Assembly: GCF_988243305.1 (NCBI RefSeq)
Contig: NZ_OZ547136.1
Reading direction: 5' to 3' (one strand)
DNA: 64,000 nt
The notes under the pieces were generated by a model that saw only the letters and a list, made by a program, of their open reading frames with translations, was not told the DNA's origin and did no database searches. The position numbers and the translations under genes were made by a program. Positions 6,997 through 29,986 of the stretch are shown in pieces (position 1 is the first letter of the stretch; each line of letters opens with the position of its first letter).

Positions 6997-7027
6997 TAAA
7001 AGGGATACCGAAAAGGTATCCCTTTTA
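6997..7027 (+). terminator. Rho-independent terminator after fyuA
   Basis: AAAAGGGATACC-GAAA-AGGTATCCCTTTT hairpin directly after the stop codon. Confidence 0.6.
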
Positions 7028-7775: not shown

Positions 7776-10484
7776 TTGAGTGGCAACATCCTACTATCGG
7801 TCTATTTCCAGTCTCCTGTGATACTTAAGAAGATACAAACTTTTAATGGAAAAATAAAATTCAGGCAGTTTGTGGGAGACCTACTTGATAAACTATGCAT
7901 GCTTGACAGGGACGGTTTTATTTATGGTCAAAATTTAAGACTCTGTACAGAAGCTAGATATATTTGTCCTGTGCAACAAATTATAGATACCCCCCTGTTA
8001 CGCAAACTCAACCAGTTTCGTACGTTTGTTCGTAATGTCCGCCCGGGTGATGAACTGGATGTCCCGGCACAAGTTAGTGAAAAAAATTTAACCCCGCCGC
8101 CGGGTAACAGCAGTGGCAACCTTGAGCAACAGATAGCCAGTACTTCACAGCTAATTGGATCTCTGCTCGCCGAAGATATGAACAGCGAGCAAGCGGCAAA
8201 CATAGCACGTGGATGGGCCTCTTCTCAGGCTTCAGGGGTAATGACAGACTGGTTAAGCCGCTTCGGTACCGCAAGAATCACGCTGGGCGTGGATGAAGAT
8301 TTCAGCCTGAAGAACTCCCGTGACGGCAACCCTCGAAAATGGCGATTCGATGCAACAAACAGTGAACTATGTGCCGAACGTCACGAATGCTGAAATCACG
8401 CTGGCAGCCTCGAAGGACCCGGTGATTGCCGACAATAACGATCTCACGACACTAACAGCACCGTCGCTGATACAGAGGGCAATGCGATAGCCAACACTGA
8501 GGTAACATTTACTCTACCGGAAGATGTGAAGGCGAACTTCACGCTGAGCGATGGCGACAAAGCGGTTACTGATGCCGATGGCAAAGCGAAAGTCACGCTG
8601 AAAGGTACAAAAGCAGGCGCTCATACCGTGACAGCATCGATGGTTGGCGGTAAGAGTGAGCAGTTGGTGGTGAACTTTACTGCGGATACGCTCACTACGC
8701 AGGTTAATCTTAACGTTACCGAGGACAATTTCATCGCCAATAACATTGGAATGACCAGGCTACAGGCAACAGTGACTGATGGAAACGGCAACCCAGTAGA
8801 AGGTATAAAAGTTAATTTCCGTGGAACCTCCGTCACGCTAAGCAGCACCAGCGTTGAAACGGATGATCAGGTTTTCGCTGAAATTCTTGTGACAAGCACC
8901 GAGGTCGGACTAAAAACAGTTTCAGCCTCTCTGGCAGATAAACCTACTGAAGTCATCTCGCGATTACTGAATGCCAAGGTAGATGTTAATTCTGCGACGA
9001 TTACCAGTCAGGAGATACCTGAAGGTCAGGTCATGGTCGCACAAGACATAGCAGTTAAAGCTCACGTTAACGACCAGTTTGGCAACCCGGTGACGCATCA
9101 ACCCGCGACATTCAGTGCAGCGCCATCCTCGCAAATGATCATCAGCCAGAATACGGTCTCTACTAATACGCAGGGAGTAGCCGAGGTCACCATGACGCCT
9201 GAAAGAAACGGCTCGTATACTGTAAAAGCATCCCTAGCGAATGGAGCTTCACTTGAGAAACAACTGGAGGCTATTGATGAAAAACTGACACTCACGTCCA
9301 GTCCGCTTATCGGTGTCAATGCTCCTAAAGGCGCTACTCTGACGGCAATGCTAACCTCTGCAAATGGCACTCCAGTGGAGGGTCAGGTCATCAACTTTAG
9401 CGTAACGCTAGAAGGTGCGACGTTAAGTGGCGGAAAAGTGAGAACCAACTCTTCAGGTCAGGCTCCAGTCGTTCTGACCAGCAATAAAGTCGGTACATAT
9501 ACGGTGACTGCATCGTTCCATAACGGCGTCACAATACAGACACAGACAACCGTGAAGGTTACTGGCAACCCAAGCACCGCACATGTTGCTAGCTTTATCG
9601 CTGAACCGTCGACTATCGCCGCCACCAACAGTGATTTAAGTACCTTAAAGGCAACGGTTGAGGATGGCAGTGGTAACCTGATCGAAGGTCTCACTGTGTA
9701 CTTCGCCTTAAAAAACGGCTCCACCACATTAACGTCATTAACAGCGGTGACCGATCAAAACGGAATCGCGACAACAAGCGTGAAAGGAGCGATAACGGGG
9801 AGCGTCACTGTAAGCACAGTCACAAGCGCAGGTGGAATGCAAACAGTAGATATATCGCTAGTGGCAGGCCCAGCAGACGCCTCGCAGTCCATCCTTAAGA
9901 ACAACCAGTCATCACTGAAAGGGGACTTTACCGATAGTGCTGAGCTACATCTTGTTCTGCACGATATATCAGGCAATCCGATCAAAGTTTCTGAAGGGAT
10001 GGAATTTGTGCAATCAGGTACAAACGTGCCCTATATGAAAATTAGCGCAATTGATTACACTCAAAATATCAACGGTGATTACAAAGCTACTGTTACAGGA
10101 GACGGAGAGGGTATCGCAACGCTGATCCCCGTATTGAATGGTGTTCATCAGGCGGGCCTGAGTACCACGATAGAATTCATTAGCGCGGAAACCAGACCAA
10201 TGACGGGTACAGTGTCAGTGAATAGTGCAAACCTACCGACAGCTTCATTCCCTTCGCAGGGATTTACCGGGGCGTATTATCAGTTGAATAATGACAACTT
10301 TGCACCAGGAAAAACGGCGGCTGATTATTCGTTTTCAAGCTCGGCCTCCTGGGTAGGCGTTGATGCTACTGGTAAAGTGACATTCAAAAATGACGGTGAT
10401 AGCAATACAGTAATAATCACAGCGCCCCCAAGATCCGGTGGTGCTATTTACCAAACAGTTCCTCCTGAATCGCGTTCGGTGTGA
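7776..10484 (+). pseudogene. yeeJ: Decayed inverse-autotransporter adhesin gene (yeeJ-like): N-terminal segment fused by a large internal deletion to C-terminal Big-domain repeats, with frameshift and premature stop
   Basis: ORF 7776-8393 has the LysM-linker/beta-domain start (LRKLNQFRTF...DELDVPAQVSEK...ARITLGVDEDFSLKNS); alternate frame at 8355-8460 continues as Big-repeat sequence (MQQTVNYVPNVTNAEITLAASKDP); one-base frameshift near 8459; ORF 8526-10484 is Big-repeat-rich and ends early. Total ~2.7 kb versus ~7 kb for the intact gene. Confidence 0.65.
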
Positions 10485-10611
10485 CTATGATCATTTTCGG
10501 TGAGTATTGCTTTGATCCAAAGGCTGGTTTTCTGTGATGATTGACCAGCCTCAGAGTATTGATGACACCACCGTTCATAACAGATCGGCATTACTATGCA
10601 TAAGTACTGCC

Positions 10612-11664
10612 TCAAATTCTCGCCAAAACACTTTTTAATGCCTTTGCGAATTCATCCAGACTTATATTGTCAATTTTTTGCCCAACGACGACTGACTCCG
10701 AAACATCGGCCATTGCGGGCCATCGCGTTTTGTAATCAGCATAAATTGCAACAACAGGGGTATTATAGGCACTTGCCATATGTAATATTGAGGTGTCAGG
10801 AGTTATTGCAATATAAGCATCTTTTATGATTGCTGCTGAACGTTTAATCGAGGGTGATAAGGATAAACGGTAGACATTATTATAACAATCCACTAATGCC
10901 CTGGCTTTATCTTCCCCTTTGGGTCCATAAACGATCACTATTGGAATATCTGTTTCACTTTGAATTTTTGCTATTAGATTTTCTGCAATCGATAATGAAA
11001 ATGTACGTTCCTGCGAGCTACCGTCTAAATTGAGCGCAATGTAAGATCCTAACGATCGCATTTCCTCGCGTACCTCATCGAGTACATCATCGCTTAATGG
11101 CAATTCATATATTGACCTGACTACCGGAAAACCCGCCTCACGCATCATAAATGCCCATGTCATGGGTACAGGAGTCCGGAGATTCTGATCCATCCGGGAC
11201 GCGTTCTTACACAAAGGGGAATAGCACTTCATGGTTAAACCGACGACCTGGAAATTCGTTTTTGCTTTCAACTGACTGATAAATATCATCGTTTTCAGGT
11301 TCTTTTTACGCATCGCCTCTATACAAAGATCCGGCGTACCGTATTGCAGTGTTATATTCTTCGCTAAATCTTTTATTTCTTTTAATGTTGCGTGATCCTG
11401 CATAGTCATTGTGACTAATGTTAATTTAGTCTGTTCAAGTTTGAGCGCATTAAAGACTTCTAAATTAATTGTCGACGTAACAATTAATAGATGCTTAATT
11501 TTATGCAATTCAAGCGCCCGAATAACAGGAAAGATGGCCATAGCATCGCCAATCTGATCGGGAATATGTATGACAACAAAGTCTGTTTTTTCAATATTAA
11601 AATTATAAGCTTTATAATCGTAGTAACTAAATGCAATACGTCTCAACAATGATACTAAAAACAT
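10612..11664 (-). CDS. yeeL: Putative glycosyltransferase (family 9 heptosyltransferase-like), 350 aa
   Basis: Intact ORF, ATG at 11664 (MFLVSLLRR); conserved position between yeeJ and shiA. Track ORF starts at an upstream TTG. Confidence 0.55.
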   Translation of the reverse strand: MFLVSLLRRIAFSYYDYKAYNFNIEKTDFVVIHIPDQIGDAMAIFPVIRALELHKIKHLLIVTSTINLEVFNALKLEQTKLTLVTMTMQDHATLKEIKDLAKNITLQYGTPDLCIEAMRKKNLKTMIFISQLKAKTNFQVVGLTMKCYSPLCKNASRMDQNLRTPVPMTWAFMMREAGFPVVRSIYELPLSDDVLDEVREEMRSLGSYIALNLDGSSQERTFSLSIAENLIAKIQSETDIPIVIVYGPKGEDKARALVDCYNNVYRLSLSPSIKRSAAIIKDAYIAITPDTSILHMASAYNTPVVAIYADYKTRWPAMADVSESVVVGQKIDNISLDEFAKALKSVLARI

Positions 11665-11978
11665 AACTAACCTCGCCTCCCTACTGGTTATAATGCAATG
11701 CAGTCTATCAGAATCATCAGGGTGCAATTTTGTGCATATGCGGACTTTTATGTTTCATATCTCGAACCTGTGGGCCATCTGCTTAATCCTTAAACAACAC
11801 CAGCAACTCCTGCGCTTTCATCTTCCATCGAATTTTTCATGTTGCCGCTAATCAGCCATAAAATCATTTGCAGATGCGCTCTGTCGAGGTAGTCTCATAA
11901 GGTTCGTTTATAGATCGACGGCAATGTGAGTTACCTTTTCCATACTAATTATAAAAAGACAGTACAAACAGGATCATT

Positions 11979-13295
11979 ATGGACTCCACGCTCATCTCCA
12001 CTCGTCCCGATGAAGGGACGCTTTCGTTAAGTCGCGCCCGACGAGCTGCGTTAGGCAGTTTCGCTGGTGCCGTCGTCGACTGGTATGATTTTTTACTCTA
12101 TGGCATTACCGCCGCACTGGTGTTTAATCGCGAGTTTTTCCCGCAAGTAAGCCCGGCGATGGGAACGCTCGCCGCATTTGCCACCTTTGGTGTCGGCTTC
12201 CTTTTCCGACCGCTCGGCGGTGTCATTTTCGGTCACTTTGGTGACCGACTGGGACGTAAGCGCATGTTAATGCTGACCGTCTGGATGATGGGCATCGCGA
12301 CAGCCTTGATTGGTATTCTTCCTTCATTCTCGACCATTGGGTGGTGGGCACCTATTTTGCTGGTGACACTGCGTGCCATTCAGGGATTTGCCGTCGGCGG
12401 CGAATGGGGAGGCGCAGCGTTGCTTTCCGTTGAAAGTGCGCCGAAAAATAAAAAAGCCTTTTACAGTAGCGGTGTACAAGTTGGCTACGGAGTAGGTTTA
12501 CTGCTTTCAACCGGACTGGTTTCATTGATCAGTATGATGACGACTGACGTACAGTTTTTAAGCTGGGGCTGGCGCATTCCTTTCCTGTTTAGCATCGTAC
12601 TGGTACTGGGAGCATTGTGGGTGCGCAATGGCATGGAGGAGTCCGCGGAATTTGAACAACAGCAACATAATCAAGCGGCCGCGAAAAAACGCATCCCGGT
12701 TATCGAAGCTCTGTTACGACATCCCGGTGCTTTCCTGAAGATTATTGCGCTACGACTGTGCGAGTTGCTGACGATGTACATCGTTACCGCCTTTGCACTT
12801 AATTATTCAACCCAGAATATGGGGTTACCGCGCGAACTTTTCCTTAATATTGGTTTGCTGGTAGGTGGATTAAGCTGCCTGACAATTCCCTGTTTTGCCT
12901 GGCTTGCCGATCGTTTTGGTCGCCGCAGGTTTTATATCACAGGTGCGTTAATCGGAATGTTGAGCGCATTTCCTTTCTTTATGGCGCTTGAAGCACAATC
13001 TATTTTCTGGATAGTTTTCTTCTCCATAATGCTGGCAAACATTGCGCATGACATGGTGGTGTGTGTGCAACAACCGATGTTTACCGAAATGTTTGGTGCC
13101 AGTTATCGCTATAGTGGCGCTGGAGTCGGTTATCAGGTTGCCAGTGTGGTTGGTGGTGGATTTACACCTTTTATTGCCGCTGCACTCATCACTTACTTTG
13201 CCGGGAACTGGCATAGCGTCGCCATTTATTTGCTGGCTGGATGCCTGATTTCCGCAATAACCGCTTTGTTGATGAAAGACAATCAACGCGCTTGA
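11979..13295 (+). CDS. shiA: Shikimate transporter ShiA (MFS, 438 aa)
   Basis: 12-TM MFS protein with GxLaDRxGRR motifs; length and neighbourhood match. Confidence 0.85.
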   Translation: MDSTLISTRPDEGTLSLSRARRAALGSFAGAVVDWYDFLLYGITAALVFNREFFPQVSPAMGTLAAFATFGVGFLFRPLGGVIFGHFGDRLGRKRMLMLTVWMMGIATALIGILPSFSTIGWWAPILLVTLRAIQGFAVGGEWGGAALLSVESAPKNKKAFYSSGVQVGYGVGLLLSTGLVSLISMMTTDVQFLSWGWRIPFLFSIVLVLGALWVRNGMEESAEFEQQQHNQAAAKKRIPVIEALLRHPGAFLKIIALRLCELLTMYIVTAFALNYSTQNMGLPRELFLNIGLLVGGLSCLTIPCFAWLADRFGRRRFYITGALIGMLSAFPFFMALEAQSIFWIVFFSIMLANIAHDMVVCVQQPMFTEMFGASYRYSGAGVGYQVASVVGGGFTPFIAAALITYFAGNWHSVAIYLLAGCLISAITALLMKDNQRA

Positions 13296-13396
13296 TAGCC
13301 TGGCGAAGATCATCCGATCTTCGCCTTACACTTTTGTTTCACATTCCTGTGACATACTATCGGATGTGCGGTAATTGTATGGAACAGGAGACACAC

Positions 13397-14851
13397 ATGA
13401 ATAATAAGGGCTCCGGTCTGACCCCAGCTCAGGCACTGGATAAACTCGACGCGCTGTATGAGCAATCTGTAGTTGCTTTACGCAACGCCATTGGCAACTA
13501 TATTACAAGTGGCGAATTACCTGATGAAAACGCCCGCAAACAAGGTCTTTTTGTCTATCCATCACTGACCGTAACTTGGGATGGTAGCACAACCAATCCC
13601 CCTAAAACGCGCGCATTTGGTCGTTTTACTCACGCAGGCAGCTACACCACCACGATTACTCGCCCTACTCTCTTTCGTTCGTATCTCAATGAACAACTTA
13701 CGTTGCTGTATCAGGATTATGGTGCGCATATCTCGGTGCAACCCTCGCAGCATGAAATCCCTTATCCTTATGTCATTGATGGCTCTGAATTGACACTTGA
13801 TCGCTCAATGAGCGCTGGGTTAACTCGCTATTTCCCGACAACAGAACTGGCGCAAATTGGCGATGAAACTGCAGACGGCATTTATCATCCAACTGAATTC
13901 TCCCCGCTATCGCATTTTGATGCGCGCCGCGTCGATTTTTCCCTCGCGCGGTTGCGCCATTATACCGGTACGCCAGTTGAACATTTTCAGCCGTTCGTCT
14001 TGTTTACCAACTACACACGTTATGTGGATGAATTCGTTCGTTGGGGATGCAGCCAGATCCTCGATCCTGATAGTCCCTACATTGCCCTTTCTTGTGCTGG
14101 CGGGAACTGGATCACCGCCGAAACCGAAGCGCCAGAAGAAGCCATTTCCGACCTTGCATGGAAAAAACACCAGATGCCCGCGTGGCATTTAATTACCGCC
14201 GATGGTCAGGGTATTACTCTGGTGAATATTGGCGTGGGACCGTCAAATGCTAAAACCATCTGCGATCATCTGGCAGTACTACGCCCGGATGTCTGGTTGA
14301 TGATTGGTCACTGTGGTGGCTTACGTGAAAGCCAGGCCATTGGCGATTATGTACTTGCACATGCTTATTTACGCGATGATCACGTTCTTGATGCGGTTCT
14401 GCCGCCCGATATTCCTATTCCAAGCATTGCTGAAGTGCAACGTGCGCTTTATGACGCTACCAAGTTAGTCAGCGGCAGGCCCGGTGAGGAAGTCAAACAG
14501 CGGCTGCGTACAGGTACTGTGGTAACCACAGATGACAGGAACTGGGAATTACGTTACTCAGCTTCTGCACTTCGTTTTAACTTAAGCCGGGCCGTGGCAA
14601 TTGATATGGAAAGTGCAACCATTGCCGCGCAAGGATATCGTTTCCGCGTGCCATACGGGACACTACTGTGTGTTTCAGATAAACCGTTGCATGGCGAGAT
14701 TAAACTTCCCGGCCAGGCTAACCGTTTTTATGAAGGCGCTATTTCCGAACACCTGCAAATTGGCATTCGGGCGATCGATTTGCTGCGCGCAGAAGGCGAC
14801 CGACTGCATTCACGTAAATTACGAACCTTTAATGAGCCGCCGTTCCGATAA
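13397..14851 (+). CDS. amn: AMP nucleosidase (484 aa)
   Basis: ATG at 13397 (MNNKGSGLTPAQALDKLD) gives 484 aa; track ORF from 13241 is an upstream in-frame extension. Confidence 0.85.
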   Translation: MNNKGSGLTPAQALDKLDALYEQSVVALRNAIGNYITSGELPDENARKQGLFVYPSLTVTWDGSTTNPPKTRAFGRFTHAGSYTTTITRPTLFRSYLNEQLTLLYQDYGAHISVQPSQHEIPYPYVIDGSELTLDRSMSAGLTRYFPTTELAQIGDETADGIYHPTEFSPLSHFDARRVDFSLARLRHYTGTPVEHFQPFVLFTNYTRYVDEFVRWGCSQILDPDSPYIALSCAGGNWITAETEAPEEAISDLAWKKHQMPAWHLITADGQGITLVNIGVGPSNAKTICDHLAVLRPDVWLMIGHCGGLRESQAIGDYVLAHAYLRDDHVLDAVLPPDIPIPSIAEVQRALYDATKLVSGRPGEEVKQRLRTGTVVTTDDRNWELRYSASALRFNLSRAVAIDMESATIAAQGYRFRVPYGTLLCVSDKPLHGEIKLPGQANRFYEGAISEHLQIGIRAIDLLRAEGDRLHSRKLRTFNEPPFR

Positions 14852-15193
14852 TAAGTTATGAACCTTCTTATCAGAAATAGATGTGAAGGATTAAGTAAGA
14901 CATCTGGCAAATAGCCTGCAATAAACGCGGGCTGTTTGCTTCCTTGGGCAGATGCGAGTTTTATTATCGTCTTAATGATTTCCACATATTAAAAGCAAGT
15001 ATGCTTTCAAAACACAATTATAAAAAATCCCGCCAACAACATTAGTTTTTATAAAATTAAATATAAGATTATGGCTTTAGAATATTTTTATTTCTAATAG
15101 ACGAGATTTTTCCTGTTATGATATAATATGCTGAATTAACACATGTTAACGATTTACCAGTAATGTAAATAAATTTTCGAGGAGATCATTCCA

Positions 15194-15910
15194 GTGGGAC
15201 GTAAATGGGCCAATATTGTTGCTAAAAAAACGGCTAAAGACGGTGCAACGTCTAAAATTTATGCAAAATTCGGTGTAGAAATCTATGCTGCTGCCAAACA
15301 AGGTGAACCCGATCCAGAATTAAACACATCTTTAAAATTCGTTATTGAACGTGCAAAGCAGGCACAAGTTCCAAAGCACGTTATTGATAAAGCAATTGAT
15401 AAAGCCAAAGGCGGTGGAGATGAAACGTTCGTACAGGGACGTTATGAAGGCTTTGGTCCTAATGGCTCAATGATTATTGCTGAGACATTGACTTCAAATG
15501 TTAACCGTACGATTGCTAACGTTCGCACAATTTTCAATAAAAAAGGCGGCAATATCGGAGCGGCAGGTTCTGTCAGCTATATGTTTGACAATACGGGTGT
15601 GATTGTATTTAAAGGAACAGACCCTGACCATATTTTTGAAATTTTGCTTGAAGCTGAAGTTGATGTTCGTGATGTAACTGAAGAAGAAGGTAATATTGTT
15701 ATTTATACTGAACCTACTGACCTTCATAAAGGAATCGCGGCGCTAAAAGCAGCTGGAATCACTGAGTTCTCAACAACAGAATTAGAAATGATTGCTCAAT
15801 CTGAAGTTGAGCTTTCCCCAGAAGATTTAGAAATCTTTGAAGGGCTTGTTGATGCCCTTGAAGATGACGACGATGTACAAAAAGTTTATCATAACGTCGC
15901 AAATCTCTAA
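15194..15910 (+). CDS. yeeN: YebC/PmpR-family transcriptional regulator (238 aa)
   Basis: GTG start with GGAGA RBS; family-typical N-terminus [12 protein letters not shown]. Confidence 0.8.
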
Positions 15911-15919
15911 TTATATGTT

Positions 15920-15953
15920 AAAGAAATCTGTCTTTATGGCAGATTTCTTTAAT
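15920..15953 (+). terminator. Rho-independent terminator after yeeN
   Basis: AAAGAAATCTG-N9-CAGATTTCTTT hairpin followed by T-rich tract. Confidence 0.5.
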
Positions 15954-16364
15954 CTCATATAATCCTTATAAAAATATAATGTTTAACTCGTCATATTGCT
16001 TATAAAAAATCCCCGTTCCCAGAGAAATAATATTTATTAAAATGGCAGGTCTTCTTTTTCTGATTACCGAAGACAAAGTGGCAATTACGTATAGTTTCCC
16101 GATAAAGACGCGACAGCTACATCCCGCATAAGGCATTTTTCTCTTTATCTTTGTACGGTACTTCATGGAACAGAATTTTTGACCTTGTGAATCGTGATGT
16201 CTGTTGGGGAGGAGCAATTTGCTCACTGAAGCGTGAGACTCGATTAAGCGCACGAAACACAGAAATCAAAAAACCCGGCCACTTTTTTACAAACTGACCG
16301 GGTAAAAATAATTTTTATTTTTTAACTGCCTTGAGACTCATAGAGATGTCTCAAAACTAAAATT

Positions 16365-16440
16365 TGGCTCCTCTGACTGGACTCGAACCAGTGACATACG
16401 GATTAACAGTCCGCCGTTCTACCGACTGAACTACAGAGGA
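16365..16440 (-). tRNA. asnW: tRNA-Asn (GUU)
   Basis: Reverse complement of TCCTCTGTAGTTCAGTCGGTAGAACGGCGGACTGTTAATCCGTATGTCACTGGTTCGAGTCCAGTCAGAGGAGCCA; symbol assigned from gene order. Confidence 0.9.
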
Positions 16441-16540
16441 ATCGTGAGAACGAGGCGAATATTAGCGATGCCCACCCACAATGTCAAAGCCTGTTTTTTA
16501 AATTTGAAATCGTTTGCTGAAATAATCTGCATTTTGTTGT

Positions 16541-18181
16541 TTATTCCGACACAACTGGCTTTTTTTCACACTTTTGCGGTTCGGGTCGAGGGTATTTCCA
16601 TAGCCAACGTCCAGTAACCATTCGCCAGTAAAACAGCACGGCCCGCACAGCCCAGTCGGCAAACATTCCCATCCAGACACCAACCACACCCCAGCCAAGC
16701 ATGATGCCCAGCACATAACCGACGACAACCCGGCAACCCCACATGCTCAACATAGAAACCCACATAGCGTAACGGGCGTCACGAGCCCCCTTAAATCCAG
16801 CGGGTAGCACCCATGAGGCGGACCAAATAGGCATAAATAAAGCATTTAGCCAAATCAGAATCACAACGACATGTTTAACCTGTGGATCCTGGGTGTAAAA
16901 CGATGCCATAACCCCGGCAAAGGGAGCCGTTAGCCAGGCGATGGCCGTTAATCCAAGAGTGGACAGCCAGAAGACATGCCGCAACTGAATCTCTGCTTGC
17001 GCTATCTGCCCTACCCCTAACCTTCGGCCTGTAATGATCGTAGAAGCAGAGCCGAGCGCACTTCCGGGTAAGTTGATAAGAGCCGCAATTGAAAACGCGA
17101 TAAAATTTCCGGCAATAACACTGGTCCCCATCCCGGCAACGAACATTTGGGTTAATAACCGACCACTGGTAAATAACACTGATTCGACACTCGCTGGAAT
17201 ACCAATCCCCATGACTTCCCAGATAATGCTAAAATTCAGCGGTTTAAAATAGCTCTTTAACGAAATCCTTAGCGCAGGATTAAAACCAATCGCCAGCACC
17301 CACAAAATTGCAACTGCGCCAATATAACGAGAAATGGTTAAACCCAACCCAGCCCCGACAAATCCCAGTCCCGGCCAGGAGAAAAGGCCGTAAATCAATA
17401 TGCCGCTAATAATAATATTAAGAATATTCAGGCTACCGTTAATCAGTAGCGGTATTTTCGTATTCCCTGCACCACGAAGTGCCCCGCTACCAATCAAAGT
17501 GATGGCAGCTGCTGGATAACTGAGTACCGTCAGCTCCAGATAAGTCAACGCCAGTGCTTTAACTTCTGTCGTGGCATCACCCGCGACGAAATCAATAATT
17601 TGCTCGCCAAAATGATGAATAAGCGTTGCCAACAGTACGGCAAACAACGTCATGATCACCAATGACTGCCGCGTCGCCACCCTCGCTCGTCGTCGATCCC
17701 GCTTACCGAGACTAAATGCCACAACGACAGTAGTACCAAGATCGATAGCAGCAAAAAAAGCCATAATGACCATATTGAAGCTGTCCGCCAATCCCACGCC
17801 GGCCATCGCATCTTTTCCCAGCCAGCTGACCAGAAAAGTGCTCAGAACCCCCATCAACAGGACACAGGCATTCTCCATGAAGATAGGAACAGCAAGCGGG
17901 GTTATCTCGCGCCAGAACAACACTTTGTAGCTCTTGCGTTTAGCGTGCCAGCGAGTGCCGTGAACAACCTGGCGTAAAGCAGAGGAGATATTCAAAGCCG
18001 ACCTTAATTGCAGAAAGTGAAACCACATTTCAAATAATGAGGGAGAATCAGCAAAGCTGCAAAGATTTTCGCCAACAAATTGTCTGCAAATGCAACAAAC
18101 TGTTGATAGAAACGGCAAACAGTTGGGGAATTTAAAAATCGGGTTTGACAAAAGATTTTTCGCCGTTAAGATGTGCCTCAA
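16541..18181 (-). CDS. yeeO: MATE-family efflux transporter YeeO
   Basis: 12-TM MATE protein; TTG start per track; lies between two tRNA-Asn genes. Confidence 0.8.
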   Translation of the reverse strand: MRHILTAKNLLSNPIFKFPNCLPFLSTVCCICRQFVGENLCSFADSPSLFEMWFHFLQLRSALNISSALRQVVHGTRWHAKRKSYKVLFWREITPLAVPIFMENACVLLMGVLSTFLVSWLGKDAMAGVGLADSFNMVIMAFFAAIDLGTTVVVAFSLGKRDRRRARVATRQSLVIMTLFAVLLATLIHHFGEQIIDFVAGDATTEVKALALTYLELTVLSYPAAAITLIGSGALRGAGNTKIPLLINGSLNILNIIISGILIYGLFSWPGLGFVGAGLGLTISRYIGAVAILWVLAIGFNPALRISLKSYFKPLNFSIIWEVMGIGIPASVESVLFTSGRLLTQMFVAGMGTSVIAGNFIAFSIAALINLPGSALGSASTIITGRRLGVGQIAQAEIQLRHVFWLSTLGLTAIAWLTAPFAGVMASFYTQDPQVKHVVVILIWLNALFMPIWSASWVLPAGFKGARDARYAMWVSMLSMWGCRVVVGYVLGIMLGWGVVGVWMGMFADWAVRAVLFYWRMVTGRWLWKYPRPEPQKCEKKPVVSE

Positions 18182-18188
18182 CAGCGAT

Positions 18189-18264
18189 TCCTCTGTAGTT
18201 CAGTCGGTAGAACGGCGGACTGTTAATCCGTATGTCACTGGTTCGAGTCCAGTCAGAGGAGCCA
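18189..18264 (+). tRNA. asnU: tRNA-Asn (GUU)
   Basis: 76-nt sequence identical to the other two copies, ending CCA; anticodon loop CUGUUAA. Confidence 0.9.
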
Positions 18265-18273
18265 AATTTATGA

Positions 18274-18300
18274 AAAGCCCGCTTTTATAGCGGGCTTTTT
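18274..18300. terminator. Bidirectional hairpin terminator between asnU and cbl
   Basis: AAAAGCCCGCT-TTTAT-AGCGGGCTTTT with flanking T/A tracts. Confidence 0.5.
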
Positions 18301-18301
18301 G

Positions 18302-19252
18302 CTATATCTGATAATCAATTTCCTCTTCACTGTTTTCCATCACCTGGCGCTTGATATCCTCAACTGACAGTCCTGCATTACAAAGTTCCAGAAAGCGCCA
18401 GACATAGTTACGCTGAAGTTGTCCTCGCTTGAGTCCCAACCAGACAGTATTAGCATCGAAAAGATGCCGCGTATCCAGGCGGATTAAATTCTTTTCCTCT
18501 TGTTCACCGCTGGATTGTTCGGCAACTAATCCGATCCCAAGCCCAAGAGCAACATAGGTTTTAATGACATCAGAATCCTGCGCACTTAATACAATATCTG
18601 CCAGCAAACCTTTGCGGGCAAATGCGTCATCAATACGTGAGCGCCCCGTAATCCCCTGTCGGTAAGTGATTAACGGCCACTTCGCTATTGATTCCAGCGT
18701 CAATGGTGTAATTTGCGTCAAGGGATGATCGTGTGGAACAAGCAAACTATGGTGCCAACGAAACCACGGGAAGGCGACGAGCTGCGGGTCATTACTCAAA
18801 CGCTCGCTGGCGATACCAATATCAGCTTCGCCATTTTGCAACAACGTCGCAATTTCCTGTGGCGTACCCTGGATTAGCTCCAGCCGAACCTCCGGGAAAA
18901 GTTCGCGAAAAGCTTTAATGACCTCAGGCAAGCTATAACGTGCCTGAGTATGCGTTGTTGCAATAGTGAGAACGCCAGACGTATCGTTGGTAAACAGGTC
19001 TGCAAGCCGACGAACATTACTGGCTTCATTCAGAATACGTTCTGCAATGACCAGTAATGCTTTGCCCGGTTCAGTCATGCCCAGCAGTCGCTTACCTCGT
19101 CGAACAAATATTTCGATGCCAAGTTCATCCTCCAGTTCCCGAATATGACGGCTGACGCCGGACTGTGAGGTAAAAAGCATATTCGCAACCTCTGTCAGGT
19201 TGTAATCCTGACGTGCAGCCTCGCGGATTATCTTTAGTTGTTGGAAATTCAC
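18302..19252 (-). CDS. cbl: LysR-type regulator Cbl (316 aa)
   Basis: LysR HTH N-terminus; adjacent paralog nac; 316 aa. Confidence 0.8.
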   Translation of the reverse strand: MNFQQLKIIREAARQDYNLTEVANMLFTSQSGVSRHIRELEDELGIEIFVRRGKRLLGMTEPGKALLVIAERILNEASNVRRLADLFTNDTSGVLTIATTHTQARYSLPEVIKAFRELFPEVRLELIQGTPQEIATLLQNGEADIGIASERLSNDPQLVAFPWFRWHHSLLVPHDHPLTQITPLTLESIAKWPLITYRQGITGRSRIDDAFARKGLLADIVLSAQDSDVIKTYVALGLGIGLVAEQSSGEQEEKNLIRLDTRHLFDANTVWLGLKRGQLQRNYVWRFLELCNAGLSVEDIKRQVMENSEEEIDYQI

Positions 19253-19353
19253 GGTAAACTCCGGGCAGTTCAGATTTTCCGTTATTGTTAAAGTCTAATG
19301 CCCGGCATAACAAATAATAAAAACCCGCATCTTATTCCATCCCGATATAACGC

Positions 19354-20271
19354 TTAGCTCACCAATTGCCACTGCCTTTTTTCCATCACTGGAGAACTCA
19401 TCACTGACATTAACAACTCTTTCACTGCCTGTGCCTGTGGTGATAAGTTCGCTCTGGCGGGTAAATTTAATGACAAAGAGAGACTCATGGAAGGTGTGGT
19501 AATGCGTGACATCCACCCGTTTACTGCGCCACATAACGAACGCGCGGCCGATTCGGGTAATACTGCAACGCCCATGCCGCTGGCAATCGCTGCGGTAAGC
19601 GTGGCAATAGACTCAATTTCACCAATGACTTTTGCCGTGAGTCGCCGTAGGGAAAACGCCTCATCAACACGAAGTCTAACAGCGCTGTAATCACTGGGGA
19701 GAAAGAGGTTCATTTGTGCAATAGCATTAACATCAACGCTTTGCCCCGGGCAATCTTGAGTTCCTACCAGGAAAAGATCTTCTTTCAGCAAAGCCTGACT
19801 GGATACCCCAGCCACAGGGGAATGCTCATAAATCACCGCCATATCGAGTTGGTGATTTATCAGTTTTTCGTTAAGCACTGCACCGCTATTTTCATGAAGA
19901 TAGATAACGATCTCCGGGAATTCAGCGCGAACCGCCTGTAATAAGGGCATGGTGATAGATGACGCAGCGGTTCCTGGCGCAAAGCCAATCGAGACTTGCC
20001 CCGATAATGCCTGACCAACGTTATGCACCGCCAGTTGGGCCTGCTCACACTGACGTAAAATGGCCCGCGCATGGGTATAGAGAATTTTTCCGGCGTCTGT
20101 TGGCGTAACGCCCCGTTTTGTGCGAATCAAAAGTTGTTGATTTAACTCACCTTCCAGTGTGGCAACCTGCTGGCTGAGCGCTGGTTGTGCGATATGCAAT
20201 ACTTCAGCAGCCTGAGTCAGGCTACCAATATCTACAATTTTTACGAAGTATTTCAGGCGTCTGAAGTTCAT
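19354..20271 (-). CDS. nac: Nitrogen assimilation control protein Nac (305 aa)
   Basis: ATG giving MNFRRLKYFVKIVDIGSLTQAAEVLHIAQPALSQQ; track ORF is a 10-codon upstream extension. Confidence 0.85.
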   Translation of the reverse strand: MNFRRLKYFVKIVDIGSLTQAAEVLHIAQPALSQQVATLEGELNQQLLIRTKRGVTPTDAGKILYTHARAILRQCEQAQLAVHNVGQALSGQVSIGFAPGTAASSITMPLLQAVRAEFPEIVIYLHENSGAVLNEKLINHQLDMAVIYEHSPVAGVSSQALLKEDLFLVGTQDCPGQSVDVNAIAQMNLFLPSDYSAVRLRVDEAFSLRRLTAKVIGEIESIATLTAAIASGMGVAVLPESAARSLCGAVNGWMSRITTPSMSLSLSLNLPARANLSPQAQAVKELLMSVMSSPVMEKRQWQLVS

Positions 20272-20596
20272 GTTGCCTCCGGTTTTTGAGAATCGGCCCA
20301 AGTGCCGCCATTACTTACAACCAGACTGCAAGATGCTTGCCAGTTTTATTTTGGCGTTGATGTACAAGCTAACCAACTGTCAAATAAGAGATTATGATAG
20401 ATTCGTCATTGGCTCTTTTCACCAGCAGTCGCGTTCCCCTGCCCTATAAAAGGAGGGTATGCACCACGATGGTTCATTACCAATAAGATTGAAATCTCAT
20501 CACTTTGTTGAAATTGGCAGCAAACAAACAAAAAAATGCATTTCACCCTTTGACATCACCATGCACTGCCATTAATATGCGCCCCGTTCACACGAT

Positions 20597-20672
20597 TCCT
20601 CTGTAGTTCAGTCGGTAGAACGGCGGACTGTTAATCCGTATGTCACTGGTTCGAGTCCAGTCAGAGGAGCCA
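20597..20672 (+). tRNA. asnV: tRNA-Asn (GUU)
   Basis: Third identical 76-nt tRNA-Asn copy. Confidence 0.9.
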
Positions 20673-20678
20673 AATTCA

Positions 20679-20706
20679 AAAAAGCCTGCTTTCTAGCAGG
20701 CTTTTT
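20679..20706. terminator. Hairpin terminator between asnV and ldtA
   Basis: AAAAAGCCTGCT-TTC-TAGCAGGCTTTTT. Confidence 0.5.
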
Positions 20707-20727
20707 GCTTTCTAATTACCAACGCTC

Positions 20728-21663
20728 TTAAAACATCTGTCTTGAACCAGAACTAATTTGCACAGGCATTCCCGATCGACGTTGCAACGCAGCATTTGCG
20801 CGATTCACATCAACTTCTTGCCCGTTGATAAACGCCCGCAAAGATGGGGTTACCGGCAATGGCACTTTTCGGTCAGACTCATATTCTGCACGATTGCGCG
20901 ACAGCGGCTCATGAACTTCCAGCCAGTTCGAGCCATCTGGTTCAGTGGTGTATTTTACTGGCTGGTCGATAATTTGCACACGCGTTCCAACAGGAACATT
21001 ATCAAACAGATATTTGATATCGTCATTGCGCAGACGAATACAGCCCTGACTTACCCGAAGTCCAATACCAAAATTGGCATTGGTACCGTGGATGGCATAC
21101 AACCTGCCAATATAAATCGCGTACAGCCCCATGGGATTATCGGGCCCCGCAGGAACAAATGCGGGCAAACTCTCCCCTCGTTTCGCATATTCGCGCCGAG
21201 TGTTCGGCGTTGGCGTCCAGGTTGGAGCTTCTTGTTTACGTTCAACGGTAGTCACCCAGTTACGCGGGGTTTCTCTCCCAGCCTGGCCGATACCAATAGG
21301 AAAGACTTCCACAGTATTACTGTCTGGCGGGTAGTAATAAAGACGCATCTCAGCGACGTTAACCACAATCCCTTTACGAAAAGTGGCGGGCAAAATCAGT
21401 TGCTGCGGAATGGTGAGTTGCGAGCCAGACTTCGGCAAGAAAACATCAGCGCCCGGATTCGCTTCCAGCATGTTACTTAACCCTTGCCCGTATTGTGCGG
21501 CAAAAGTCTCCAGCGGCTGGGTATTGTGATCAGGAACAGTTACAGTAAGCGACTGCCCCACCAAACGGCTACCCTCTGGAGGTAATGGATAAGTTACCGC
21601 CAGGCTAGTATGGCTGGCAAAAAGCAGAGCAAATGAGCAAAGAATATTTACACGACGCATCAT
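20728..21663 (-). CDS. ldtA: L,D-transpeptidase (ErfK/LdtA)
   Basis: Signal peptide plus YkuD-domain motif [20 protein letters not shown] (catalytic Cys). Confidence 0.85.
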
Positions 21664-21724
21664 GTCCCTTTCCTATGTCGCGAAAGCTATCCGTTAAGTA
21701 TAGCTTTTATCAGACTTTTCGTTT

Positions 21725-22804
21725 TTAACTGTTCAAATCAGAAGTCGTATTCCCCGGTAGAACAATATTACTGGCAGCAAGTTCGCCCATGTTGTTATAT
21801 ATCGCACAGGCAGCTTCGATGATGGGCATCGCCAGAGCTGCGCCACTCCCCTCACCTAAACGCATCTCCATATTGAGATAAGGCTCCAGCCCCAAATGCG
21901 ACAGCGCTATACGCGCCCCTTTTTCTGCCGACAGGTGAGAAGGAATGAGATACGGTTTGATTGCAGGAGACATCTGGCAGGCTGCGAGCGCAGCAGCATA
22001 AGAAAGAAATCCATCCAGCAACACGGGTAAACCGCAGGAAGCAGCGCCTAACATCACGCCAGCCATTCCGACCAAATCAAATCCCCCCACTTTTGCCAGA
22101 ACATCAACGCCATCCTGCGGATTTGGTTGATTCAACGTAATCGCCCGGCGCACAACATCAATTTTATTAGCCAGTTTATCTGTCGGCAGGTTTGCGCCAA
22201 TCCCAACCACTTCTTCAGGATCCCGGCCAGTGATTGTGCTGACTATTGCCGCTGCCGGTGTCGTGTTTGCCATCCCCAGTTCACCTACACCAAACAGCGT
22301 GACACCGTTTTTTGCCAGCTCCCGCGTATAACATATGACGTCCAAAAGCAACTTTTCAGCCTGACGGCGACTCATTGCCGGAGCTGAAGCAATATTGCCG
22401 CTACCTCGTGCGACACGCATGTTGATAAGCCCGGGGATAGGCTCAGCACTATCAATACCAACATCAACTACGTGGACGTTAGCGCCCGCTTGTGCTGCCA
22501 GCACACACACGCCGGTTGTTCCGCGGGTCATATTTTCAGCCTGAATGGCTGTCACTTCTTTTGGGGAAATAGCGACCCCTTCCTCCCAGACGCCGTGATC
22601 GGCACACATAACCAGTACCGCTTTTTTGCCCACATGCGGTATGCCATTCAACCCCGGCATTCCCGCCAGTTGTATGGCAAGCGCCTCCAGCCTTCCCAGG
22701 CTACCAACAGGTTTAAGTAACCCGTCAATATGCCGTTGTGCACGCGACATAGCGGCAGGATCGATAGCAGGGATCGTATTCAGTAAATCGGCAAGTGTTT
22801 GCAT
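21725..22804 (-). CDS. cobT: Nicotinate-nucleotide:dimethylbenzimidazole phosphoribosyltransferase CobT (359 aa)
   Basis: Length and sequence family; cobU-cobS-cobT operon order. Confidence 0.9.
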
Positions 22805-22815
22805 GTCACGTCTCT

Positions 22816-23559
22816 TTATAGCAGTGCCAGCAGGAAGACCAGTTCACCAGGCTCTATAGCAGCTCCCAGCGTATCGCCGGTTTGCCCGCCCAGCGTACGT
22901 TTGAGAAGCTGACCGAGGATGAAAATCGCCACCATCGTCACCACCATAGCAGCCACACCATGCATACCCGGCAATAATACGGCAGCAAAAATAGCGGCTA
23001 AGCCGAGTGTGACGCAGGTTTGTCGCCCATCAATTTTGCCAATGAACACATTGCCAAGCCCTTCTTCCCGGGCATAACGATGACGATACATCAATAATGC
23101 GGCAGTCCCGCGGCTGACCGCACATGCTGCCGCCAGCGATGCAAGGATCGGTTCGCCACGCAGAGCCAACTCGCTTAATACCAGAATCTTTGCCAGTACA
23201 ACAAAAATCAATGCCAGACCGCCATGGGTGCCTAAACGGCTATCACGCATGATTTCCAACATGCGATCGCGGCTACGTGCAGAAAATACGCCATCACAGG
23301 TATCGGCGAGGCCGTCCAGATGGAATCCCCCGGTCATCAGCGCCAGCACAAGTACGCTAAACAGTGCCGCCAGTGGTACGCCACACCATGCCTGCAGCAC
23401 CATGAAGACCAGCCCGCTAATCGCGCCAAGCAATAATCCAATTAAAGGAAAAGTAATAATACCGCGAGAATAATGCTCGAAATCCAGTCCCTGGGACCAG
23501 CGACGCGGTACAGGCAGACGCGTAATAAATGAGAGCATCGCCCAAAATAATTTACTCAT
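22816..23559 (-). CDS. cobS: Cobalamin 5'-phosphate synthase CobS (247 aa)
   Basis: ATG at MSKLFWAML overlaps cobU stop (ATGA); polytopic membrane protein. Confidence 0.85.
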
Positions 23560-24101
23560 TTGATTTTTACTCCAATACCCGAAACCACCAGCCATACTTC
23601 ATTTGCCGCAGCGGCCAGCTGCTGATTTACCCGCCCGGCAATATCACGAAAATGTCGTGCCAGACGACTCTCCGGCACAATCCCCATTCCCACTTCGTTA
23701 GTCACTAATACAACCTTTGCGGGGCAACGTTGGCAGGCAGCAATCAACGACTGAATCTCAGCATTAATCGCCTGTTCCATCGCCTGATAATCCCATTCAT
23801 CAGGGTCTTTATCGCCGCCATAATCAAACAACAGATTAGTCACCATTGTGGTAACGCATTCCAGCAACACAGCTTCATGCGGGTTAATGTCTGCATGAAT
23901 TAATTCATCAAGATGTTGCCAACGCTCCACCGTGCGCCAGTGCGCCGGACGGCCTTGCCGATGATGTTCTATCCGTGCAGCCATCTCGTCATCAAGGATT
24001 TGCGAGGTAGCGATATACAGAACCTGTGAAGAGTCCCCAATAAGCGCCTCTGCGTGGCGACTCTTCCCGCTCCGTGCGCCCCCCGTCACCAAAATCATCA
24101 T
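23556..24101 (-). CDS. cobU: Adenosylcobinamide kinase/guanylyltransferase CobU (181 aa)
   Basis: P-loop GGARSGKS; 181 aa. Confidence 0.9.
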
Positions 24102-25307
24102 ACCGACTCCTGATTCAAATGTATGATGGTATTCATTGAACAGAACAATGGATCCCCCACCGTTGCTGACCGCAAAACATTTACGCGATTAATACTGCGC
24201 GTAATATAATTAAAAATCCAGCATTCTCAATCCATTACGAAATAAGATGGCATTACGGAATAGCCAGACTTTCTCGTGTTAACGTCCGACAAAATGCGTC
24301 ATTGACAGCGGTTTCTGTGGATTGACACATTTCATTCAGATAATGAATTAATGCTACTGCCGGACCAACCAGCAAACGGGCATTGTGTTCTGAAATCCAG
24401 GCTATTGATTCAACGTCAGCGACAGATCTGCGCTGTAAAAGAACTTGTAAAACAACGCAATAGAATTATCCGGAATGGTGGCGACTATGCACTAGAACAC
24501 CACAATTTCGCTCTCTCGGTAAGGCACTGTCACAGCATTCAACAGAATGTGACTTGCCAGATTTATTAGCGCCACCAGATGTTTAACCGGGTAACCACGA
24601 CCCAGTCGGGGATATATTCCATCTTCTCGCTGACATCATCAAGAATAAAAAGGTTTATCACACTCAGAGCAACGTTCTTCAGCAGGCGGGATAATTCTTC
24701 AACATTTAGAAGATGTGTTATTAAAGGCATACAAACTGGACGTATTGTATTTTCTTTTGGTGGTTGACCTAAGGTAGCAGTTTATCCTGATGCGCTGAGA
24801 TTTCTGTAATATCTACGTCAACATTCTCCTCGAATAGAAAATGCAGCCCCGGCAAGTGATTCACATTTTTTAACAAAACGTTGTTAGCGTGCCATTTTCA
24901 GAAGCTCTCCAAGAAAGCGAATTCTTTTCTCAAATTCTGCATTCTCAGACACAGCTTTCTACTCCATGGCAATGGCCCAAATACGAAGTTGCTCAGGATC
25001 ATTAGTGGTGCTGAGAAGTTAAATAACCATGCGGAGTACCACTCGTCATCACGTATTTATATATCATGAAGCTATTGTTGTGTTTTGTACATCAGTAGAT
25101 ATATTCTGATATACTCCTTTTGCTAGACATAACCTTTCACCTGCTTGCAAAGCTTCTGTGTTCTGACATTGCCAAATTGTTGCAATTCTGTATCCAGCCT
25201 TCTTTCAGTCATAGCTTCGGGCCGCGATAAGACTCACTGATCTGACCCTGATTCCTCTTGCAGACTTTATAGACCATTTAAAATGCAGTTTCGGTAATGA
25301 CTCCAAC

Positions 25308-25811
25308 TTATTGATAGTGTTTTATGTTCAGATAATGCCCGATGACTTTGTCATGCAGCTCCACCGATTTTGAGAACGACAGCGACTTCCGTCCCAGCCG
25401 TGCCAGGTGCTGCCTCAGATTCAGGTTATGCCGCTCAATTCGCTGCGTATATCGCTTGCTGATTACGTGCAGCTTTCCCTTCAGGCGGGATTCATACAGC
25501 GGCCAGCCATCCGTCATCCATATCACCACGTCAAAGGGTGACAGCAGGCTCATAAGACGCCCCAGCGTCGCCATAGTGCGTTCACCGAATACGTGCGCAA
25601 CAACCGTCTTCCGGAGACTGTCATACGCGTAAAACAGCCAGCGCTGGCGCGATTTAGCCCCGACATAGCCCCACTGTTCGTCCATTTCCGCGCAGACGAT
25701 GACGTCACTGCCCGGCTGTATGCGCGAGGTTACCGACTGCGGCCTGAGTTTTTTAAGTGACGTAAAATCGTGTTGAGGCCAACGCCCATAATGCGGGCAG
25801 TTACCCGGCAT
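25308..25811 (-). CDS. insB: IS1 InsB (made as InsAB' by -1 frameshift)
   Basis: 167-aa IS1 transposase frame overlapping insA 3' end. Confidence 0.85.
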
Positions 25812-26005
25812 CCAACGCCATTCATGGCCATATCAATGATTTTCTGGTGCGTACCGGGTTGAGAAGCGGTGTAAGTGAACTGCAGTTGCCATGTTTTACG
25901 GCAGTGAGAGCAGAGATAGCGCTGATGTCCGGCGGTGCTTTTGCCGTTACGCACCACCCCGTCAGTAGCTGAACAGGAGGGACAGCTGATAGAAACAGAA
26001 GCCAC
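25730..26005 (-). CDS. insA: IS1 InsA (91 aa)
   Basis: [42 protein letters not shown]. Confidence 0.9.
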
Positions 26006-26577
26006 TGGAGCACCTCAAAAACACCATCATACACTAAATCAGTAAGTTGGCAGCATCACCTGCAGTTTCTGCAGGTCAACGTCTGACCATCATTGTCATC
26101 ACTCTGGCCATTAGAGTAACCTTCTGCATTCATCCTTTTGTAAAAAGTTTATATCAGTATCAGCAATTAACCGGACCTGATACTGATATGAGTCTTACCG
26201 CATATACGGTTAATTTCAGCAATTAATTACATTATCCACGCCAAAGTATTTGTCATCACAATGATGGTACCTTCTTTCAGACACCATTTTTTCAACTCCG
26301 TTTTCCACGGACCGCACTCTTATGTCAAGAGTGCGGTCCGTGGATACAACCAGAGACCGACTGACACGAGTCAGAGGAAACGACGGATATGTTCAGTCGT
26401 AAAATATCTATCAAAAAACATGATTAAGGTCAAAAATGTTTGATATTTACAATTTATGAAGATGACAATAATTATAGACACATGAGAACATAAATGAAAA
26501 TAATTATCATTACAGCAATCTGAATCGCCACGGGTTTAACAGACACCTCAGAGTCATTTAAGATGGCTTAAAGAGAG

Positions 26578-26871
26578 GTGCCCATGAGCGGTAAGCGTTA
26601 TCCCGAAGAGTTTAAAACTGAAGCAGTCAAACAGGTTGTTGATCGCGGTTATTCTGTTGCCAGCGTTGCAACACGTCTCGATATCACCACCCACAGCCTT
26701 TATGCCTGGATAAAGAAGTACGGTCCGGATTCTTCCACTAATAAAGAACAGTCAGATGCTCAGGCCGAGATCCGCCGTCTCCAGAAAGAGCTGAAACGGG
26801 TTACCGACGAACGGGACATATTAAAAAAAGCCGCGCTCTTGATGTCAGACTCCCTGAACAGTTCTCGATAA
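26578..26871 (+). CDS. IS3-family transposase OrfA (HTH)
   Basis: [32 protein letters not shown]...; probable ATG at 26584. Confidence 0.8.
26824..26830 (+). promoter_or_regulatory. Programmed -1 ribosomal frameshift heptamer A-AAA-AAG (orfA to orfB)
   Basis: ATTAAAAAAAGCCGCGCTC at the orfA/orfB overlap, as in IS911. Confidence 0.55.
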
Positions 26872-26897
26872 TCGGGAAACTCAGGGCGCGTTATCCT

Positions 26898-27258
26898 GTG
26901 GCCACTCTCTGCCATGTGTTCGGGGTCCATCGCAGCAGCTACAAATACTGGAAAAACCGTCCTGAAAAGCCAGACGGCAGACGGGCTGTATTACGCAGCC
27001 AGGTACTTGAACTACATGGCATCAGCCACGGCTCTGCCGGAGCAAGAAGCATCGCCACAATGGCAACCCAGAGAGACTACCAGATGGGGCGCTGGCTTGC
27101 TGGCAGACTCATGAAAGAGCTGGGGCTGGTCAGCTGTCAGCAGCCGACTTACCGGTATAAACGTGGTGGTCATGAACATGTTGCTATCCCTAACTACCTT
27201 GAACGGCAGTTCGCCGTGACCGAGCCAAATCAGGTGTGGTGCGGTGATGTGACCTATA
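26898..27258 (+). pseudogene. IS3-family transposase OrfB, 5' exon (interrupted by intron)
   Basis: ...[27 protein letters not shown] then frame diverges into intron. Confidence 0.7.

Positions 27259-29986
<2,728 letters not shown>

Follow-up and report, generated by a model that had tools for sequence, protein, structure and literature searches.

asnW, asnU and asnV of E. coli, empty and in K-12 order, downstream of an immobile HPI very probably inserted at asnT

The genes asnT, asnW, asnU and asnV together encode the sole tRNA-Asn species of the E. coli cell, and the 3' end of a tRNA-Asn gene is the attachment site for P4-type tyrosine integrases, such as those of the HPI, the pks/colibactin island, ICEEc1 and others. 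The HPI is located at asnT in nearly all HPI-positive E. coli, where it is fixed, its right direct repeat and the adjoining backbone being deleted (Schubert et al. 2009, PMC2606025). The pks island can use any of asnW, asnU and asnV for its insertion, the asn tRNA copies do not differ from each other in sequence (100% identity), and the species includes a 4309-bp inversion across asnW-asnU-asnV (PMC8209727). We have analysed a stretch of 64 kb (the window) which starts within the HPI and contains a tRNA-Asn array further downstream (Table 1). We are highly confident that this array corresponds to E. coli asnW, asnU and asnV, empty and in K-12 order, downstream of an immobile HPI inserted at an asnT that lies outside the window.

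Table 1. Coordinates of the features discussed, as window positions
Feature	Position	Strand	Basis
HPI right-hand part (yersiniabactin)	1-6990	+	ORFs; names from 99.9%-identical E. coli 042
irp1, 3' end	to 1360	+	ORFs, 042 names
ybtU	1357-2457	+	ORFs, 042 names
ybtT	2454-3257	+	ORFs, 042 names
ybtE	3261-4838	+	ORFs, 042 names
fyuA	4969-6990	+	ORFs, 042 names
AT-rich stretch from fyuA to start of yeeJ homology; truncated right HPI border	6991-7996		K-12 comparison, att search
yeeJ remnant (inverse autotransporter adhesin)	7997-10441	+	042 annotation, K-12 alignment
Two predicted hairpins 3' of asnW	16268-16357	-	Fold prediction, -36.3 kcal/mol, z = -5.8
asnW, tRNA-Asn(GTT), empty site	16365-16440	-	ARAGORN, Rfam, K-12-like yeeN-asnW-yeeO synteny
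Promoter-like site of asnW: TTGACA, 17-nt spacer, TAATAT	16459-16487	-	Consensus match
yeeO, MATE-family FMN/FAD exporter (longest ORF; 042 RefSeq start ~18027)	16541-18181	-	ORFs, 042 annotation, K-12 synteny
Promoter-like site of asnU: TTGACA, 16-nt spacer, TAAGAT	18145-18172	+	Consensus match
asnU, tRNA-Asn(GTT), empty site	18189-18264	+	ARAGORN, Rfam, K-12 synteny
Predicted asnU terminator hairpin, then U run	18272-18300	+	Fold prediction, -19.5 kcal/mol, z = -5.0; repeat family D2
cbl, LysR-type regulator	18302-19252	-	ORFs, 042 annotation
nac, nitrogen assimilation control regulator	19354-20271	-	ORFs, 042 annotation
Promoter-like site of asnV: TTGACA, 17-nt spacer, TAATAT	20550-20578	+	Consensus match
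asnV, tRNA-Asn(GTT), empty site	20597-20672	+	ARAGORN, Rfam, K-12 synteny
Predicted asnV terminator hairpin, then U run	20679-20706	+	Fold prediction, -18.0 kcal/mol, z = -5.3
ldtA (erfK), first gene past asnV, no island between	20728-21663	-	ORFs, 042 annotation, K-12 alignment

An earlier note on this DNA had described three identical tRNA-Asn genes within 4.3 kb, one on the minus and two on the plus strand, separated by yeeO and cbl-nac, and ARAGORN, Rfam and the alignment agree with this description. Exactly three tRNA-Asn genes (anticodon GTT) are detected by ARAGORN in the 64 kb, each scoring 72.6 bits with the Rfam tRNA model RF00005, and the array (16365-20672) spans 4308 bp. Across the three copies 84 columns are invariant, which correspond to the 76-nt gene and 4 flanking nt at each end; between asnW and asnU the identical stretch amounts to 85 nt, over which both are 100% identical to asnW and asnU of K-12, and asnT of E. 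coli 042 has the same sequence as asnU. The 29-nt 3' part of the tRNA is matched three times versus none expected in shuffled sequence, so that the threefold occurrence does not result from chance. The gene order yeeN-asnW(-)-yeeO-asnU(+)-cbl-nac-asnV(+)-ldtA matches that of K-12, and an annotated genome with 99.9% identity has yeeO between asnW and asnU, and cbl plus nac between asnU and asnV. Judged by sequence and synteny, the three copies are the canonical asnW, asnU and asnV of E. coli. Consensus matches and fold predictions suggest that each of them would form a unit by itself, comprising one gene, a sigma-70-type promoter (having a perfect -35 TTGACA) and a terminator made of a hairpin plus a U run. 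The stretches upstream of asnV and asnW are 97% identical (inverted repeat I1, 104 nt). The second hairpin following asnW, CCCGGUCAG...GGCCGGG, precedes a U run and is predicted to resemble an intrinsic terminator, and the asnU and asnV terminators are paralogous, the changes in their stems being compensatory.

The presence of the 3' end of irp1 and of ybtU, ybtT, ybtE and fyuA confirms that the window starts inside the HPI, as had been noted earlier. Homology to K-12 and to HPI-negative genomes starts at position 7997, which corresponds approximately to nt 219 of K-12 yeeJ: the 3' flank of K-12 asnT and the 5' end of yeeJ have no counterpart in the window, and a 17-bp direct repeat was not found on the fyuA side, between fyuA and yeeJ. 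In comparison to K-12 the yeeJ remnant also lacks around 3.7 kb internally, the HSPs skipping from 5545 to 9239 of the K-12 locus. The same HPI-yeeJ junction is observed in 2068 of 5426 complete genomes, and by its sequence the HPI is of the usual fixed E. coli type; as published, the deletion of the fyuA-side direct repeat and of the yeeJ 5' end would render it unable to excise. E. coli 042 matches the first ~25 kb of the window at 99.8-99.9% identity; in this strain mtfA is followed by tRNA-Asn, integrase and ybtS, continuing to fyuA, with asnT and the HPI integrase placed ~23.5 kb before the first base of the window. Within these 25 kb there are 47 mismatches, and the window is thus not strain 042 itself. 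From such near-identical genomes we infer that in the source genome asnT is occupied by the HPI beyond the window start, and the proposal to that effect in the earlier note is in agreement both with the 042 gene order and with PMC2606025. It is very unlikely that the HPI is instead a relocated copy, of the ICE type or other, as that of ECOR31 at asnV. Indeed, ICE-type HPIs at asnV exist (PMC2606025) and asnT falls outside the window; however, asnV is empty here, the run from fyuA into a truncated yeeJ with neither conjugation module nor direct repeat is the signature of the asnT-fixed form (PMC2606025), and asnT-int-ybtS is found upstream in all top-matching genomes, 042 included.

A comparison with K-12 MG1655, which is free of islands at these sites, shows that window positions 10461-24495 align as a single colinear HSP of 14,037 columns, almost gapless and without insertion, no extra DNA being present at asnW, asnU or asnV within this interval. 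Spacings between successive tRNAs amount to 1824 and 2408 nt (1824 and 2409 in K-12), and yeeN, cbl and ldtA, the 3' neighbours of the tRNAs, are found at their K-12 distances. Among the ORFs of the window and in the 042 annotation there is no integrase gene beside any of the three tRNAs, and neither a pks island in the window nor any island at the three sites was found. We have searched for attachment repeats using the 17-bp core CCAGTCAGAGGAGCCAA, in which as many as 3 mismatches were tolerated, the 29-nt 3' part of the gene, blastn-short at word size 7 and exact k-mers: throughout the 64 kb the core is absent outside the three tRNAs at ≤3 mismatches, as are exact tRNA fragments of 12 nt or longer, and the few 10-11-mers correspond to chance level. 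The att-like repeats beside a copy, which the earlier note had set as the sign of a further integration event, were therefore not found in this search, and its claim that the three copies are unoccupied is upheld by the gap-poor K-12 colinearity, the lack of a neighbouring integrase and the lack of att repeats; unoccupied is here meant relative to K-12, so that an ancient, fully decayed insertion common to all E. coli would escape the comparison. Of 5424 genomes, 4858 have an unbroken segment from yeeN to ldtA, the breaks in the rest being at the three tRNA positions.

A small or decayed element integrated at one of the copies could be suspected in the 454-bp spacer between yeeN and asnW, which is long, AT-rich and contains two hairpins, all the more as some genomes (H62) carry a ~2-kb insertion with an integrase gene inside the yeeN-ldtA segment. 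Yet the spacers equal those of K-12 in length and sequence, the yeeN-asnW spacer contains no integrase or other ORF, and the repeat searches described above, for tRNA-derived repeats and for the 17-mer, were negative in the window: we consider this reading highly improbable and close to refuted. The preferred reading is that asnW, asnU and asnV are empty and keep the ancestral order seen in K-12, asnT alone very probably being used, by the HPI.

As they are identical over 84-85 bp and occur in both orientations, the copies are possible substrates for inversion and deletion. That they could mediate such recombination, as anticipated earlier, is borne out across E. coli, both by PMC8209727 and by complete genomes, the window itself being in K-12 order. 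In our survey of 5,426 complete E. coli genomes, the asnW x asnV inversion junction is present in 266, the junction of an inversion of yeeO only (asnW x asnU) in 34 and that of an asnT x asnW inversion in 1. A further junction, yeeO-tRNA-ldtA, occurs in 35 genomes, a number which is an upper bound for cbl-nac deletions (asnU x asnV), at least one genome being such a case: MEI3O-23 has this junction, lacks cbl-nac and retains three tRNA-Asn places in the record, which identifies a clean deletion. Counting all 35 as deletions was rejected, since 2016C-3878 has the same junction but keeps four tRNA-Asn places and bears an island at the neighbouring copy; some of these genomes may thus be compound rearrangements. 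The 34 junctions of the yeeO inversion display 8 identity values (96.6-98.0%), an indication of several haplotypes, so that the inversion may have arisen independently several times. The inverted 4.3-kb configuration was reproduced in PMV-1, and islands occupy tRNA-Asn sites in PMV-1, JE86-ST05 and 2016C-3878. Rearranged genomes are also found among very close relatives of the window, with junction identities of 100% (JE86-ST05) and 99.9% (MEI3O-23).

In O157:H7 WS4202 the loss of yeeN-ldtA is not attributed to tRNA recombination, as its border is at an IS1203 copy in yeeJ, in line with an IS-associated deletion. The junction sequence does not separate a RecA- from an integrase-mediated origin of the inversion, given that integration at asnW with a subsequent attR x asnV exchange leads to the same final sequence as integration at asnV with a subsequent asnW-asnV homologous exchange.

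The occurrence of inversions and deletions between copies in the species, including the close relatives JE86-ST05 and MEI3O-23, raises the question of whether the array of the window has itself been inverted or reshuffled with respect to the ancestral order. This is extremely unlikely, as K-12 has the same order and orientation, like about 90% of complete genomes, and the K-12 flanks are kept at each tRNA. Rather, the array of the window would represent the ancestral K-12 order. We give little credence to the reading that recombination recurs at the array in forms other than the pks-linked 4.3-kb inversion already published. If rearrangements recur or reverse within populations, a small structural switch could result and, were this true, the switch would swap tRNA promoter contexts, change the orientation of yeeO and delete cbl/nac, with the window as its 'ground state'. 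The repeated inversions and a deletion via 84-85-bp tRNA copies illustrate, on a modest scale, how tRNA gene families serve as recombination substrates.

The layout of the locus and the HPI at asnT are already known, and the asnW x asnV inversion is published: the window shows once more an E. coli locus of textbook status together with a well-studied HPI insertion, and matters little by itself. Its value is for annotation, as a genome with three free asn attachment sites, none bearing pks, and an HPI of the immobile type. With the K-12 asnT-asnW-asnU-asnV cluster (b1977, b1984, b1986, b1989) it shares tRNAs that are 100% identical over 84-85 bp, the neighbours yeeN, yeeO, cbl, nac and ldtA, and the orientations and spacings; it differs in a ~2% nucleotide divergence of the flanking genes and in that asnT lies outside the window, the HPI standing between it and yeeJ in this lineage. 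The resemblance to the E. coli-type HPI fixed at asnT (PMC2606025) comprises the ybt/irp/fyuA genes, the lost fyuA-side repeat and the deletion into yeeJ, with no difference detected, the left end (asnT, int) having been compared in near-identical genomes only. With the genomes of the 2021 pks study (PMC8209727) the window has the attachment sites and the 4.3-kb segment in common, whereas it is devoid of pks and of islands at the three sites, and its segment is in the non-inverted configuration.

All tRNA genes in the 64-kb window, exactly three according to ARAGORN, are tRNA-Asn genes with anticodon GTT, and this prediction reproduces exactly the coordinates, strands and 4.3 kb span which the earlier note had given for three identical copies. 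In an alignment including 30-nt flanks, the 76-nt gene and 4 nt on each side are invariant; asnW and asnU run for 85 nt without a difference, and asnW and asnV retain 97% identity across 104 nt because the upstream promoter region is common to both. Upstream, a stretch of about 24 nt with promoter and discriminator sequence is common to asnW, asnV and the fourth E. coli copy, asnT, of K-12 (MG1655), whereas asnU differs. The paralogy reaches past the tRNA genes, into the upstream stretches 16441-16464 (asnW) and 20573-20596 (asnV). A promoter-like site precedes each gene, its -35 being a perfect TTGACA and its -10 either TAATAT or TAAGAT, and a stable hairpin and a U run follow: therefore, asnW, asnU and asnV are monocistronic, and all three encode the only tRNA-Asn species of E. 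coli. The terminators of asnU and asnV are paralogous (77% identity), their stem changes being compensatory (CCCGC/GCGGG versus CCTGC/GCAGG).

Features of the window with their coordinates
Feature	Position	Strand	Evidence or content
asnW, tRNA-Asn(GTT)	16365-16440	-	ARAGORN; Rfam tRNA model, 72.6 bits
asnU, tRNA-Asn(GTT)	18189-18264	+	ARAGORN; Rfam tRNA model, 72.6 bits
asnU terminator (predicted)	18272-18300		
asnV, tRNA-Asn(GTT)	20597-20672	+	ARAGORN; Rfam tRNA model, 72.6 bits
asnV terminator (predicted)	20679-20706		
CP4-44-like cryptic island	~24500-50800		after cobU
Group II intron	27915-29528	+	507-aa ORF with reverse-transcriptase (RVT_1) and group II maturase (GIIM) domains
IS102/IsrC sRNA	38612-38815	+	Rfam; upstream of agn43
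sRNA STnc240	59230-59304	-	Rfam
Histidine operon leader	62042-62165	+	Rfam

Several complete E. coli chromosomes, including that of 042, match the first 24 kb of the window at 99.9% identity, although the 47 mismatches in the first 25 kb indicate that the source is not strain 042 itself. The gene order in 042 is irp1, ybtU, ybtT, ybtE, fyuA, broken yeeJ, a GT9 glycosyltransferase gene (yeeL), shiA, amn, yeeN, tRNA-Asn(-), yeeO, tRNA-Asn(+), cbl, nac, tRNA-Asn(+), ldtA, cobT, cobS and cobU; K-12 has the same order; there the copies are named asnW, asnU and asnV, and asnT precedes yeeJ. In the alignment to K-12 one HSP of 14,037 columns, at 97.8% identity, covers window 10461-24495, with no extra DNA at the three copies and with tRNA spacings of 1824 and 2408 nt, versus 1824 and 2409 in K-12. 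No integrase gene adjoining any of them was found among the window ORFs or in the annotation of 042. Outside the three tRNA genes, CCAGTCAGAGGAGCCAA, the att core of the yersiniabactin high-pathogenicity island (HPI), is absent from the window even at 3 mismatches (chance expectation 0.16), and no tRNA-derived fragment of at least 12 nt turned up elsewhere in it in a sensitive search with short words. The absence of extra DNA, integrase and further att core thus bears out the proposal that the three copies are unoccupied; att-like repeats beside a copy, named beforehand as the contrary sign, were searched for and are absent from the window. The window is the ground state, with the K-12 order and all three sites empty.

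The HPI itself enters the window within irp1, and fyuA ends at 6990. In 042 one has to go back around 23.5 kb from the window's first base to reach the start of the island, where mtfA is followed by asnT, the tyrosine integrase gene and ybtS, and asnT has the same sequence as the other three copies; judging from such near-identical genomes, asnT is probably the occupied site in the source genome as well. At the fyuA-side end, the att core search of the window yielded no direct repeat. K-12 and other HPI-negative genomes match the window only from 7997, about 219 nt into K-12 yeeJ, and nothing in the window corresponds to the K-12 asnT 3' flank or yeeJ 5' end. Of 5426 complete genomes, 2068 carry an identical fyuA-yeeJ junction. 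What is left of yeeJ, which encodes an inverse autotransporter adhesin, is a remnant (7997-10441) whose 5' end has gone with the HPI border deletion; compared with K-12 it has also lost about 3.7 kb from its interior, and it is annotated as frameshifted in relatives.

The suggestion that identical copies may recombine or invert the intervening DNA does not apply to the window, which keeps the K-12 order, but holds for other complete E. coli genomes. We searched 5,426 of these with synthetic junction queries, requiring the full junction. The yeeN-to-ldtA segment is unbroken in 4858 of 5424 genomes, the breaks in the other genomes falling at the asnW, asnU and asnV positions. The asnW x asnV product, a 4.3-kb inversion (yeeN-tRNA-nac), occurs in 266 genomes and was verified in PMV-1, where a pks integrase lies at the right-hand tRNA. 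An inversion of yeeO only (asnW x asnU) occurs in 34, verified in AH65 with neither copy carrying an island; eight identity values at the junction (96.6-98.0%) suggest several haplotypes. The yeeO-tRNA-ldtA junction was found in 35 genomes and verified in MEI3O-23 as a clean cbl-nac deletion with 99.9% identity to the window; some of the others look like compound rearrangements, and therefore 35 is an upper bound for this deletion. A single genome, ET5, has a verified asnT x asnW inversion.

Homologous recombination across the 84-85-bp identity most simply explains the island-free inversions and deletions. For the island-linked inversions an integrase-mediated route is equally possible, and the final sequences, being identical by either route, do not separate the two. 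In JE86-ST05, a pks-negative close relative of the window, the 4.3-kb inversion (junction 100% identical to window sequence) is accompanied by a 13-kb non-pks island (integrase, RepL, CoiA, H-NS), and in ET5 the inverted segment has at its end an island with the same product set (RepL, CoiA, DUF4756, H-NS, DUF6387). Loss of the whole segment in E. coli O157:H7 WS4202 was not counted as tRNA-mediated, the deletion border lying at an IS1203 copy in yeeJ; asnW, asnU and asnV are gone. Only two tRNA-Asn-containing places were found in this record, and therefore a viable culture-collection strain can do with fewer than four copies.

Elsewhere in the window, the CP4-44-like island holds IS remnants, inovirus Gp2-family, YfjI-family and GTPase genes, agn43 (antigen 43), antirestriction genes, yeeS/yeeT and the cbeA/cbtA toxin-antitoxin pair, with no integrase or tRNA at its border. 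The island exceeds the K-12 version in size, 26520-37956 being without K-12 counterpart. Directly after the 507-aa ORF of the group II intron lies a match to Rfam RF00029 (29442-29528). The surroundings of the intron (about 25292-30017) have no counterpart at the same place in 042, and the equivalent position in JE86-ST05 has an IS3 element which is interrupted by an ltrA gene. The three sRNA and leader matches are all expected in this chromosomal region.

Altogether, what the earlier note observed is confirmed and its interpretation supported, and all of it matches biology that was already known. The yeeO-only inversion, the cbl-nac deletion and the asnT x asnW inversion have no mention in PMC2606025 or PMC8209727, and only their counts, which are of genomes and not of independent events, are mildly new. 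That E. coli has a family of four asn tRNA copies is known, and so is the HPI fixed at asnT with its right repeat deleted: Schubert et al. (PMC2606025) found it at asnT in all HPI-positive ECOR strains except one, with a unique fyuA-side border deletion which took away the direct repeat together with part of the neighbouring backbone and fixed the island in place, and the right end in the window agrees with this. It is also known that pks and ICE-type elements can attach at asnW, asnU or asnV alternatively, and that the asnW-asnV segment can invert: in Auvray et al. 2021 (PMC8209727) the asn copies are 100% identical, pks inserts at asnW, asnU or asnV, and the configuration described is the 4.3-kb inversion observed here.
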